From IMG/VR virus record IMGVR_UViG_3300027815_000003, positions 1 to 64,000 of that record: DNA of 64,000 nt. One strand, given 5' to 3'. Under the pieces are notes generated by a model. It was given only the letters and a program-made list of their open reading frames with translations, was not told the origin of the DNA and ran no database searches. Position numbers and translations under genes: made by a program. This DNA is from a virus. This document shows positions 10,489 to 14,994 of the stretch, in pieces (the stretch's first letter is position 1; every line of letters begins with the position of its first letter).

Positions 10489-11037
10489 TCATTTTATAAT
10501 TACCCTGTTTATCGCATCGCCCAAATCATTTACTCTTAATACATTGTTTGGTAAATCAATTATATTTTTGTTCCACGATTGATTAACTAGATAAAGTTTT
10601 TTATTTGGATAATTTTTTGCTTCTTCAACAGTTTTAGGACTATCATCTATCAAACAATCGATTGGAAACTCAAATTTGCTTAATCCATCACCGACAAATA
10701 ATAAATCGTGATATGGGATATTATAATTATTTAACCAACTTACGACAGAACAATGTGTATTGCTATCCCTATGAGTGATAATAGATATACGATGTTTTTT
10801 CATCAATTTCTTTAGTAATTTATCTGGATATTTATATTCAAGAGATAATTCATTGTCTTGCCACCAATTCCAAACTTGAAAAAATATTTCTCTTTGTTCT
10901 CTTTTAGAATAACCATGTTTTTGAAAAAAATCCCATTCTGTCACATCTTTTTTCGTAAAATCAGATAATCTAGAATTTCTCAATGCGGCAGAAATTAAAT
11001 CAGCCAAAACACCATCTACGTCTATCCCTATATTCAT
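10489..11037 (-). CDS. 5'(3')-deoxyribonucleotidase-like HAD phosphatase (NT5C family)
   Basis: IGIDVDGVLAD HAD motif I; ITHR; LIDDSP motif; NQSWN. Confidence 0.85.
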   Translation of the reverse strand: MNIGIDVDGVLADLISAALRNSRLSDFTKKDVTEWDFFQKHGYSKREQREIFFQVWNWWQDNELSLEYKYPDKLLKKLMKKHRISIITHRDSNTHCSVVSWLNNYNIPYHDLLFVGDGLSKFEFPIDCLIDDSPKTVEEAKNYPNKKLYLVNQSWNKNIIDLPNNVLRVNDLGDAINRVIIK

Positions 11038-11267
11038 GCCATTGCAACTACTTTCTCTGTATATTCCGTTGTTTCGATTTCAGTAAATCCTTGTATAAGC
11101 CATATCCGACGTTCTGGGTATTCTTTAAGAGTTTTTTCTAAGTCTATATTCGCCTGTACAAGTGTATGACATCCAAGCTGTATATCAACTGGACGAAAAT
11201 AGGTCATGTCTACAGTAATAGTTGGAAATACAAAAATTCTAAAGTTACCTTCGTAAGCCATATATCT

Positions 11268-11312
11268 ACTATAACACAATCTACAAACACTGTCAATACG
11301 TAATCTTACTTA
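11268..11312 (-). promoter_or_regulatory. motif promoter
   Basis: TAAGTA-N4-TACGTA-TTGACA-N17-TATAGT. Confidence 0.85.
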
Positions 11313-11313
11313 T

Positions 11314-11355
11314 AAAAAAAGGGGCCAGCAGGGTATTGTAACCCGACACGGCCCT
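11314..11355 (-). terminator. intrinsic terminator
   Basis: GGGCC...GGCCC GC-rich stem with inner GGGT/ACCC pairing, then 7 T. Confidence 0.8.
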
Positions 11356-12140
11356 TGTAGATATGAATTTTCATTATCACTATAATATATCTGTGGAAGA
11401 AAATTCTAAACAAACTTATTTAGGAAACTATCTATTATCGTTTTTTACAAGGTATCGTGATTGTCTTACCAGACTTGTTTCGCCTTGATATTTCATTTTC
11501 ATCCCGCTTGTAGTGGGGCTTATAAAAGAAATAATAACAAAATGTACCACATAGGAAACTAAATGTTTGTTTTTATCCTGGTTACTATTGTGTTTTACAA
11601 AACTTTTTTATCCAGTTGGAAGCCACTGTAATTATTTTTAGTGTATTCTGACTCTTACCAGATTTTTCTTGCACTGTCTACTCGTTTAAGACGATCAAGC
11701 TTGGTAGACCCCTTGATTATTTCCTCCCATCGGGAGGATATTTTTATGCTTCCACCGTATCTTTCGGGATAGCACTGACCAGTATTTTGTTTTATCCTGG
11801 TTTTATTTTAACAGCCCCGCTCAAATCAATGATAAACTCTTTTAGCTGTATTAGTCGTATCATTATTATCTTGCGAGATTTTCTATCTTCGGTGCTTATC
11901 ACACAGAAAGATAAAATTTGCCAACATCTAGAGTTGGACGATTCCGATGGTATTCAGCTTTCGCTAGTTCTTCTTTCAATGATTGACTATTGCCAATCTC
12001 CAGAAGCGTAGATTCGGCTATACCCTAGCCTATTTTTTCAACGGCCTTGTTTAGTCACCGTCTCTTTTCCCTTTTGAAACCCTAAAACTTTTTCTGTGGC
12101 ATTGAGAAGTCACCACATTCTTGTTCTTCAAAAAACAAAA
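11314..12140 (-). ncRNA. candidate large structured ncRNA (~0.83-0.92 kb)
   Basis: No credible ORF; many hairpins with GNRA-type loops; long-range GGGGCT/AGCCCC and GGAAGC/GCTTCC complementarity; bounded by promoter and terminator. Confidence 0.7.
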
Positions 12141-12144
12141 CTAT

Positions 12145-12204
12145 TTACTTCTTAGTCATAGTAGGAGTAGTTGTCTTACCAGCCTTTGTATCATTCTTTG
12201 CCAT
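12145..12204 (-). CDS. 19-aa leader peptide MAKNDTKAGKTTTPTMTKK
   Basis: Strong SD AAGGAAGGTGA upstream of ATG; lies just downstream of the promoter, 5' of the ncRNA candidate. Confidence 0.5.
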   Translation of the reverse strand: MAKNDTKAGKTTTPTMTKK

Positions 12205-12245
12205 TTTTATCACCTTCCTTTCTCAATCTTTCTTTCACTTTTTGT

Positions 12246-12291
12246 ATTATATCACACTTTTGTTGGTTTGTCAAATACGTAAATTTACGTA
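12246..12291 (-). promoter_or_regulatory. consensus sigma70 promoter with TACGTA dyad, driving the ncRNA candidate
   Basis: TACGTA-AATT-TACGTA-T-TTGACA-N17-TATAAT with extended TG. Confidence 0.9.
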
Positions 12292-12412
12292 ATAATCGGA
12301 TAAGCTAAAATAACTCGTTTACATTTACGGCAACTTTCCATATATTTGCTGTTATCTATAATAACTTTAGGATTATTTAATTTATTTCGGCAATAAATAC
12401 AATACTTCATTA

Positions 12413-14994
12413 TTATCTCCTCACTTCCCAATCTTGTTTATTCCCAATAATATATCTTTCCCAGTGATCAAGTTCTTTCTTTAGATTGTTCCTGGCTTTT
12501 TCTTCATCAAAAAATTGAGTTTGAAAAATTTTGGGTTTAGTTAAAAATTCCTGTAGCCATTTTATCCTACCGTTTTTGAATTGTTCTTCTGTATATATCT
12601 GACTATATTCCTTCCAGATATTTTCTGTATTTTCTTTATATATTTCCCAGTCTTCAGTCAACCCAGCTAAATCACAGTCAACCATAATTTTAGATGGGAT
12701 ATTAAACAAATTTTTCCCATCATGTCTAGTCGCTAAAATATAAGAGAAAATATTATCTTTACGATCTTTATTATATTCGTCATTATACTTATAGGTTCAC
12801 CGAAAACTTGTATTTGATAAGGAGTTACATAATCTTTTCTAATACTTGGATTATGTTTTGACCACAGAATATAACAACCACATTTCATTACCAATCTCCT
12901 AAAGGGCCATTACCATTAACCCAATTACAACAAGGAGAGCCTAAATGTTGTCTTTTATCACAATAACGACATTTTCTTCTAGCATTTCCAGAATAAGCTA
13001 AAACCTTACCGTTTTTATAATAAAATCTATCATTTTTATTTTCTCTATAAAAATGTAATCCAATATAACAACCGCATTTCATGTTACTACTTCTATCATT
13101 ATATATCTTTTCGCATAAGGTGCTTCGTACTTATCACAATAATATTTTCCATGTTCATCTTCAACTAAATACATTTCTTTTTTATATCTAAATTTAGTCC
13201 CACAGCGACAACATATAATATCTTTTGTATTATAAAATTTACCATCATAATCATACATAGGACATTGGCAACAACAGAAATATCCATTACTATTTAGATA
13301 CACATAGATATCTGAAGTAGACCATCTTGCATAAGCCATATTGTTATTATACACCAATAGCCCTTTATAGTCTATAAGTAATTTTACGTATTAAAAGAAA
13401 AGTTGCACATGCCGCCCATCCAAAAACAAAACCAAAAATAAATAAAAACATATTTATATTTCTTCTATACGTAAAATAAATCTATTCTTCTCATTATCAT
13501 TACAAGAATAACTAAAAATATCTCCTATCTCTTCATTACCTGTTTTTTTAAAAAGTAACATTCTGTTACAATCGCAAGAATAATCACCTTCTTCCCAATT
13601 AAATTGTTCCACTTTTGTATAGTTATCTAAAGATTTTATTTTTCGTTCTTCACCAGTTAAAGAGTCTGTTAAATATATATTAAACATATTAATCTTTCTT
13701 TACAAAAAATAACTTTACACCAGTAACTTGGCCTTCTTCAAAATAATTTTTACCAGAAGTAGATATTTCTAAAATACCAGTTAATTGATATTTATTAAAA
13801 TCATCATAATCAACATATGATTTAAGAGTATCTAAAATTTGCTGTAAAGTATCTCCTTTATGTAAAACCAGAGTAAATCTAACTGGTTCTTTTTCTATCA
13901 TTTAACACAAACCTCCAACATATAATCATTGTTTTCATAATGTGCGTCAATTATAAAGAAAACACTTTTTGTTTGTTTTATCCAATTTTCAGAATTTGTT
14001 TTTGCCGTATTATTCCAACTTTTCTCAAATAATGAAGTTACGACAATACCGTTTTCTTCTTTACATTTATTTTCTAGTTCAATTATTATATCTTTATTAA
14101 TATAATAATTAGAATATTTTTCTGTGTTACTACAAGCACATACTATAGTTAATAAAATCAATATAAAGTAAATATAATAAATTTATTCATTATCTCACTG
14201 TTTCCCTGTCTTGTTTATACGTATTTTTACATAACCTGTATCCTGCAAGTAAAAAATATGTTGAAAAAATAGCACCGCCACTAACTACACCAAAACAAAA
14301 TAAAAATAAATAACTCATTATACCACACCAATTAAATCTTTTTCATCATCGTCTGGTTCTACATCTTCCATATTATATTTTCTTTTATATTGTTTTAGTA
14401 CGCCATCAAAATTATTTCCAGTTGATAACACTAAATAATCATAAATATGTTGTACCGCATATTCTGTAGCTTTTCGCCATTGTTCATTAAGTAATGCTTC
14501 ACCCACTCTAGCATTATCTAGCTTTTCACTATTTCCTCTAACCTTTTTAATTACTTCAATTTGTTCATCACTGGTTAGTTTACTATTTTCAAGTTCTTTT
14601 ATATCCATTATTTTACTTCTTTCTCATTAGAATAAATTGCCAAGAATTTATTTCCATCTGTATGAGTATCTACGCATATCATTGTAAAATCTTTTCCTCT
14701 ATATGCCCATTTTTTAAGAAAACGTTGTGTATAAATTTCATCAGAATAAAAACTACCAGATATATTATTTCTTTCCCATTCAAAATCACAATCAACTAAA
14801 TCTTTCATTATTTTCTTTGATTCGCAATAATAAATACCCCAGTTATATCTATTTTTTATATTCTTTAAGTTATAACTAATAGTCCAATAATAATTGCGCC
14901 TATCGTCAATTGGAATAACAACCCAATCCTCTTTATATCCAAAATAATTGTATATTTGCTTCTGTAACTCTAAATAATCGTCAAGTAATTTCAA
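12413..14994 (-). other. block of small hypothetical CDS (12413-12709, 12888-13082, 13079-13357, 13454-13687, 13689-13901, 13898-14161, 14318-14608, 14608-14994)
   Basis: Packed minus-strand ORFs with overlapping start/stop codons; motif promoters near 13346-13390 and 14190-14226. Confidence 0.55.

Follow-up and report, generated by a model that had tools for sequence, protein, structure and literature searches.

Positions 11,314 to 12,291 of an IMG/VR virus record from groundwater metagenomes (IMGVR_UViG_3300027815_000003; 190,284 bp, an estimated ~94% complete) lie within its first 64 kb, the stretch of 64,000 nucleotides analysed here and called the window below. Every feature of this stretch is on the minus strand, as is every neighbouring gene, and the stretch probably represents a transcription unit of early type, self-contained and non-coding, in a groundwater phage of 190 kb. 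Inside the unit we identify, with high confidence, a 91-nucleotide (nt) module as the omega-RNA scaffold of a TnpB nuclease of the IS200/IS605 family. The composite reading, in which a non-coding unit carries a stand-alone omega RNA from a deleted element that may guide TnpB to the allele of sibling phages, seems to us evenly balanced between right and wrong. From the predicted promoter downwards the features are as follows.

12246 to 12274, minus strand: predicted sigma-70 promoter, TTGACA-17-(TG)TATAAT, scoring 12/12 with a TG extension.
About 12211 to 12221, minus strand: strong ribosome-binding site AAGGAAGGTGA upstream of the 19-amino-acid (aa) open reading frame (ORF).
ATG at 12204, stop at 12145, minus strand: 19-aa ORF MAKNDTKAGKTTTPTMTKK, read directly from the sequence.
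12038 to 12144, minus strand: spacer with a TGTGG/CCACA hairpin, with no likeness to the 3' coding end of tnpB and no excess structure.
11947 to 12037, minus strand: stand-alone omega-RNA (TnpB guide RNA) scaffold, consisting of hairpin A, an outer stem around hairpin B, the subterminal hairpin C and the tail AUACCAU.
11927 to 11946, minus strand: putative guide, CGGAATCGTCCAACTC followed by TAGA, the DNA abutting the transposon right end directly 3' of the scaffold.
11921 to 11937, minus strand: hairpin CCAAC-UCUAGAU-GUUGG followed by CAAAUUUUAU, a weak terminator-like site found in the terminator scan.
11660 to 11920, minus strand: structured core with the hairpins AAUGAUA/UAUCAUU, ACCAG/CUGGU, UCCUCCC/GGGAGGA and GUCUAC/GUAGAC, its z-scores being weaker on the plus strand.
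11355 to 11659, minus strand: A/U-rich 3' part with the repeated motifs CUGGUAAGA and GGAU[AG]AAA (z-scores -0.4 to +1.6).
11314 to 11354, minus strand: intrinsic terminator with a 12-pair interrupted stem (11354 to 11322) and a run of seven U (11320 to 11314).
11268 to 11296, minus strand: promoter of the next gene, directly after the terminator.

The promoter belongs to a set of ~30 near-perfect TTGACA-N14-TGnTATAAT promoters in the phage, of which 26 lie on the minus strand; a control with the reversed pattern gave none. The phage seems to make heavy use of host sigma-70 through extended -10 promoters. At the opposite boundary the terminator folds with -19.6 kcal/mol (z-score -2.4), and ~800 nt without an ORF separate it from the 19-aa ORF. 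The latter is retained with the single change M16T (position 12158) in the sibling phages, a close relative found on contigs (runs X3 and X4) from two independent groundwater studies. No ORF of more than 40 aa is present on the minus strand of 11306-12285, and comparison of six stop-to-stop pieces with Pfam and PHROGs yielded nothing above noise. Alternative genetic codes were rejected as well: no frame spanning the region opens on the minus strand if TAG is read as Q or TGA as W (none in either case) or TAA as Q (at most 74 aa). The first-pass annotation was thus right to describe an ORF-free stretch bounded by a perfect TTGACA-17-TATAAT promoter and an intrinsic terminator, both of which lie on the minus strand, and the higher GC content that it noted relative to the flanks is real and modest (0.32-0.39 against 0.25-0.30 in most flanks). 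As the unit has its own promoter and terminator and no coding content, a non-coding RNA is the natural reading of its product. A replication origin with iterons was set aside: the GC skew does not turn and the motif spacing is irregular. The plus strand carries a promoter-like site, TAGATA-17-TATAAT, at 11358-11386 and a good terminator, TCCTCCC-ATC-GGGAGGA followed by TATTTTTAT, at 11722-11747, which together could yield an antisense RNA of ~350 nt against the unit's 3' half.

The identity of the module follows from its relation to a tnpB gene. When the phage's own genome was searched, positions 12037 to 11947 (minus strand) proved to have one other copy, at G000:C1:135991-136081 (plus strand), with 87% identity over the 91 nt. 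This copy begins within a 377-aa TnpB ORF, 10 nt ahead of its stop codon, and extends downstream of it. TnpB has as its guide the omega RNA, which is encoded by the 3' end of tnpB together with the transposon right end (PMC10691335, PMC10278001); processed omega-RNA scaffolds measure 79-466 nt, a range into which 91 nt fits, and their one conserved feature is a subterminal hairpin, placed no more than ~10 nt from the 3' end (PMC10278001). Folded singly, the two copies adopt the same minimum free energy (MFE) structure of four helices, with hairpin A, hairpin B inside an outer stem, and the subterminal hairpin C, which in both ends 7 nt from the scaffold end. Across the two-copy alignment 22 pairs are formed and 97.7% of cells are paired, with two double-sided and two one-sided compensatory changes; with only 2-3 sequences to compare, the statistics of compensation are weak, and the observed value was reached in 124 of 500 shuffles. 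The copies differ at 12 places; five of these changes are in the hairpin B stem, and each of the five preserves the pairing (G-C/C-G, G.U/C-G, U-A/U.G). A third, fully compensated version of hairpin C is found in the tnpB-linked copy of the sibling, CCUAA-GAAA-UUAGG compared with CUAGC-AAAA-GCUAG in this phage.

Furthermore, a covariance model built from the two scaffold copies of the phage (R1) matched within the phage just these two copies, and in addition the 3' flanks of tnpB in the relatives L005, L006, L025 and L008, whose TnpB proteins are only 47-53% identical. When folded individually, the tnpB 3' ends of distant relatives show the same layout as the phage scaffold. The right ends of the relatives finish with the hairpin and TAGTTCA[CT], those of the phage copies with the hairpin and ATACCAT. 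Among GTDB genomes the closest TnpB is only 55% identical and R1 had no meaningful match, and Rfam holds no family for the tnpB 3' ends of the phage or of 10 relatives. We also considered whether further diverged scaffolds lie at the CUGGUAAGA sites; this was rejected, R1 finding none in the phage at E<=10. A likeness of '..UCAGAAUACAC' to the scaffold tail is an unproven idea.

The phage encodes a single, intact TnpB (G000:C1:134870-136003), and no Y1 transposase was found in it. The 377-aa ORF carries the Pfam domains OrfB_IS605, Cas12f1-like TNB and HTH_OrfB, which make it a TnpB, and residues 4-367 align with ISDra2 TnpB (8h1j/8bf8) at an E value of 6e-75, the RuvC catalytic set of D, E and D being intact. 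We regard this TnpB as compatible with the solo scaffold and apparently active. The tnpB promoter (134826-134854) is of the same type as that of the unit, and AAAAGTGTGATATAAT is common to both. The tnpB locus as a whole (G000:C1:134805-136097, or L002:315-1607) has the phage-type promoter TAGACA-17-TGaTATAAT. At its left end, ~60 nt separate a possible transposon-adjacent motif (TAM), TCTAT, from the ATG, and half of the left-end hairpin seems to have been lost (CTTAGCAAAAAA). The tnpB element looks immobilised and is possibly domesticated.

Next to the scaffold in the unit we found no tnpB remnant: similarity ends at 12037, and tblastn with 27 TnpBs gave only chance-level matches. Having no adjoining tnpB, the scaffold is classed as a stand-alone omega RNA, and a compatible effector with its own, 87% identical scaffold is indeed encoded elsewhere in the genome. 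A decayed tnpB inside the region was rejected, since the tblastn matches (27 TnpBs, 1.2-kb database) had E values of 0.07-0.9 and were not colinear at gene scale. No similarity to the left end was detected either, the right-end piece alone being common to the unit and the tnpB locus. We therefore rejected a palindrome-associated transposable element (PATE), or other non-autonomous IS200/IS605 element, which would have both ends with hairpins. Solo right-end pieces beside other elements seem to recur: in L017, an IMG/VR relative of TnpB, two right ends of the hairpin + TTCA[CT] type stand in tandem at 2684-2738, the second being a 48-nt partial end of a different subfamily.

How the solo scaffold arose can be approached through the siblings. 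An 857-nt sibling contig (X3) covers 11741-11948 and 12035-12540 with ~97% identity and holds 80 other letters in place of the 86-nt scaffold block (11949-12034; the joint runs from 11948 to 12035). The last 30 of these letters were read on a loose end in X4, which has ...AACCTTCTAT before CGGAATC. On the minus strand the 30 letters form the hairpin AGGTT-TCTAGAC-AACCT and continue with TCTAT and then the shared CGGAATCG.... The left junction of the swap lies in an A-run that is also found at the start of the tnpB-linked copy. In the simplest history, a second copy of the element would have inserted after ...TCTAT and before CGGAATCG..., a deletion between the two A-runs would then have taken out the native 80 nt together with the left end and tnpB, and the right end alone would be left over. 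The best reading of the sequences is thus that a second IS200/IS605-type element lost its tnpB by deletion and that the solo scaffold is its right end. One sibling contig passes directly from 11480 to 11611, omitting the block ~11481-11610. In the adjoining 81-aa ORF (11034 to 11279), the sibling (X3) has 139 other letters in place of 145 nt (window 11067-11213).

For IS200/IS605 omega RNAs the guide lies immediately 3' of the scaffold (PMC10691335, PMC10055086), and stand-alone omega RNAs function in trans (PMC10691335). The putative guide of the solo scaffold is unique in the phage, also when up to 3 mismatches are allowed, and the DNA matching it is intact in the sibling phages that do not have the scaffold. 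There it follows TCTAT, which is one letter off the TTTAT flanking the left ends of related elements and likewise one letter off the proven TAM of ISGst2 TnpB (PMC10055086). A second TCTAT stands 17 nt upstream of the -35 box of tnpB, and the CTTAGCAAAAAA after it looks like one half of the right-end hairpin. These sites are suggestive of TCTAT as the candidate TAM. The hairpin after the guide was tried as an internal terminator and rejected, its fold being no better than that of shuffles (z-score -0.47); siblings have one U fewer after this CCAAC/GUUGG hairpin (deletion at 11913).

From these elements a mechanism can be proposed. The scaffold would be transcribed from the strong promoter at 12274, and TnpB made from the 136-kb locus could bind it and trim its 5' side, whereupon the 16-20 nt after the scaffold (CGGAATCGTCCAACTC..) would act as guide. 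In the phage's own genome the matching DNA would be shielded, as the scaffold tail ACCAT occupies the TAM position and the phage's own allele would be spared; in the sibling allele the guide-matching DNA follows TCTAT, so that the complex would cut there in a mixed infection. TnpB cuts transposon-less sites and thereby drives homing (PMC10055086), and a cut of this kind would favour replacement of the sibling allele, amounting to RNA-guided homing or competition as in PMC10055086. Given the identity of the scaffold, such trans-guiding is a tentative proposal, for which we hold the chances to be somewhat short of even. A bolder version, improbable in our view, would make TnpB a weapon or homing device with a promoter-driven guide gene: the sibling allele, cut at TCTAT + CGGAATCGTCCAACTC, would be repaired from this phage's copy, the 91-nt scaffold would spread as a minimal selfish element, and the ~300-nt core of the unit would be a separate, undescribed phage RNA.

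Several points weigh against the composite reading. The part of an omega RNA that overlaps the tnpB coding end is absent from the solo copy, where similarity stops at 12037, and the solo 91 nt may not suffice for this TnpB ortholog. In the solo copy, hairpin C no longer has its basal pair (C.A). The second zinc knuckle of the phage TnpB reads CPC, that of ISDra2 CPxC. Transcription of the unit is predicted from its promoter, and the candidate TAM rests on two sites, the second of which has a ~1-in-6 chance of being coincidence. The guide is plain local flank, as it would be for any dead right-end relic. Moreover, with only the last 30 of the 80 sibling letters available for comparison the swap is unpolarised, and the sibling state could be the derived one. 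Finally, the compensatory changes may predate the separation of the copies, when both were part of intact elements, and if they are that old they do not demonstrate present-day selection on the solo copy.

Much of this would suit an inert relic: a right end left behind by a dead IS200/IS605 element within a non-essential intergenic transcript, neither loaded into TnpB nor under selection, with the function of the unit residing in the 19-aa peptide or in an older RNA. The missing 5' coding-overlap part, the lost stem pair and the plain flank in place of a guide all agree with it, as do the mosaic nature of the region between siblings, the absence of a transposase from the phage and the occurrence of tandem partial right ends elsewhere, for instance in L017. 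Nevertheless, all four helices of the solo copy still fold, and at position 38 it keeps the family-typical GGAG, the tnpB-linked copy having GUAG there. It also stands downstream of a perfect promoter, the same genome supplies a compatible TnpB, and the published stand-alone omega RNAs act in trans (PMC10691335). On balance we judge the inert relic to be unlikely, though a serious contender.

The first-pass annotation had proposed a different interpretation, namely that the whole unit is a single ornate structured RNA of ~0.9 kb, possibly of a new class and multimerising through ACCAG/CUGGU repeats. Many of its observations stand. The hairpins and long-range complements that it listed all exist, and AACCAGGATAAAA is repeated exactly at 11571-11583 and 11790-11802, as had been reported. 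CTGGTAAGA does occur three times, at 11464-11472, 11653-11661 and 12174-12182, two of the three coordinates given earlier having been off by one. The view that the stretch is not assignable to GOLLD, ROOL or OLE was upheld by a comparison with Rfam 15 that also included HEARO and the group I and II introns: at the gathering threshold the window contains only tRNAs located elsewhere, and at E<=10 the region gave only chance snoRNA-like matches. An ORF-free unit with its own promoter and terminator, many hairpins, enriched short motifs and no Rfam match would accord with such an RNA, and the 936 nt folded as a whole reach a z-score of -2.4 on the minus strand. Overall, however, the fold of the plus strand is just as good (z-score -2.5), and the structure in excess of shuffles is limited. 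In 120-nt windows of the minus strand, 11660-11960, the scaffold and the terminator beat shuffles (z-scores -2.3 to -3.4), while 11360-11660 and 12020-12260, roughly half of the unit with no excess structure, were no better than shuffles.

The siblings speak against a single RNA as well. The 91-nt module, a transposon-derived insert that belongs to the known omega-RNA class, is absent from them, and the block ~11481-11610 that one sibling skips holds one arm of the GGGGCT/AGCCCC helix and one of the 13-mer repeats. The fact that siblings replace or lack 11949-12034 and ~11481-11610 is unlike a conserved tertiary fold. In addition, the searches made recovered no homologs and hence no covariation support: blastn of the region against INPHARED phages, exact patterns in IMG/VR (scaffold 19-mer, guide 20-mer and motif pair) and in JGI metagenomes (leader 32-mer and guide 20-mer), and an IMG/VR search for the flanking small proteins all returned zero matches. 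We therefore consider the ornate RNA very improbable and do not retain it as a description of the unit.

What remains of it is the core of ~300 nt, which is structured in a strand-specific manner. Between 11741 and 11948 the siblings are ~97% identical and differ at six places; of the four listed, two are at predicted pairs, and both substitutions keep the pair by turning a wobble into a Watson-Crick pair (11907, U.G to C-G; 11856, G.U to A-U). This is compatible with a real structured RNA of ~300 nt, the sample being far too small for more. We infer that the core and the motif-rich tail belong to an older host transcript into which the scaffold came.

The short motifs of the unit point in several directions. 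Its three copies of CTGGTAAGA are three of the five in the 190 kb, all on one strand, and GGAT[AG]AAA occurs 4 times in the 941 nt of the unit compared with 19 times in the remaining minus-strand sequence of 63 kb. Tandem duplication as the source of the repeats was rejected, two candidate units aligning only in short motifs. In the source sample (X1/X2) a separate contig of 1143 nt with a depth of ~25 matches 11654-11689 (36 nt) with 5 differences and includes a CTGGTAAGA copy; as the phage has no second copy of 11654-11689, a related motif block is present in some other genome of the sample. The motifs may be protein sites, pairing sites or decayed right-end tails. One such option is a protein sponge or regulatory RNA, in which the single-stranded motifs (CUGGUAAGA three times, NGGAU[AG]AAA four times) would titrate an RNA-binding protein of the host or phage early in infection. 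NGGAU[AG]AAA resembles the A(N)GGA sites of the CsrA/RsmA type. The concentration of CTGGTAAGA on one strand of this unit, the enrichment of GGAT[AG]AAA and the strong early-type promoter would be in keeping with a sponge. On the other hand, the CsrB/Rsm families of Rfam have no match here, there are just 3-4 sites, partly buried in MFE stems, and a sibling contig skips a block with two of them. Moreover, such repeats could act as sites at the DNA level or derive from decayed right-end tails. We hold the sponge to be quite unlikely.

Stand-alone omega RNAs of OMEGA systems were reportedly described by Altae-Tran et al. in 2021. The phage scaffold shares with these (as summarised in PMC10691335), and with PATEs that carry an omega RNA (PMC10055086), the separation from an adjacent effector or transposase, the presence of an effector-linked copy in the same genome and a guide taken from the DNA flanking the right end. 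Unlike the stand-alone omega RNAs, it resides in a phage, inside a promoter-to-terminator unit after a 19-aa ORF, it is truncated where the tnpB coding region would begin, and a scaffold-less sibling allele exists that could be its natural target; unlike a PATE, it has no left end and so is not one. The ISDra2 system of TnpB and omega RNA, also named reRNA (8h1j, 8bf8, 8exa), resembles that of the phage in the D/E/D triad, in an RNA made of the tnpB 3' end and right end and in the subterminal hairpin. In contrast to ISDra2, the phage scaffold is unrelated at the nucleotide level and ends in AUACCAU, the solo copy is without the coding-overlap part, the TnpB has CPC as its second zinc knuckle and the TAM is only a candidate, that of ISDra2 being TTGAT (PMC10278001). 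TldR and related TnpB-derived systems are likewise similar in having a guide-RNA gene apart from transposition, with its own promoter and in the context of mobile elements or phages, whereas the phage TnpB keeps its catalytic residues and shows no sign of a promoter target or repressor role (PMC10705468). GOLLD and ROOL are comparable as large phage-borne RNAs of tRNA-rich phages like this one. From these two, and from HEARO and OLE, the unit differs in having no Rfam match even at E up to 10 and in being modular and variable between siblings. HEARO we take to be the IscB-type omega RNA, so that the phage scaffold would presumably be its TnpB counterpart and functionally the same kind of guide scaffold.

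A false lead, that of a new giant ornate RNA in this stretch, is thereby removed. Stand-alone omega RNAs of TnpB are a kind already described, and what our analysis adds is the candidate target allele visible in the siblings. The locus offers a clean natural example of a guide scaffold parted from its nuclease gene in a large phage of virulent type, with the presumed target allele seen in sibling phages. If the trans-guiding proposed here is true, the homing logic of TnpB would operate between competing phages with a cargo of 91 nt alone, and this would be relevant to the question of how guide RNAs turned into genes of their own along the path from transposon nucleases to CRISPR-Cas12.

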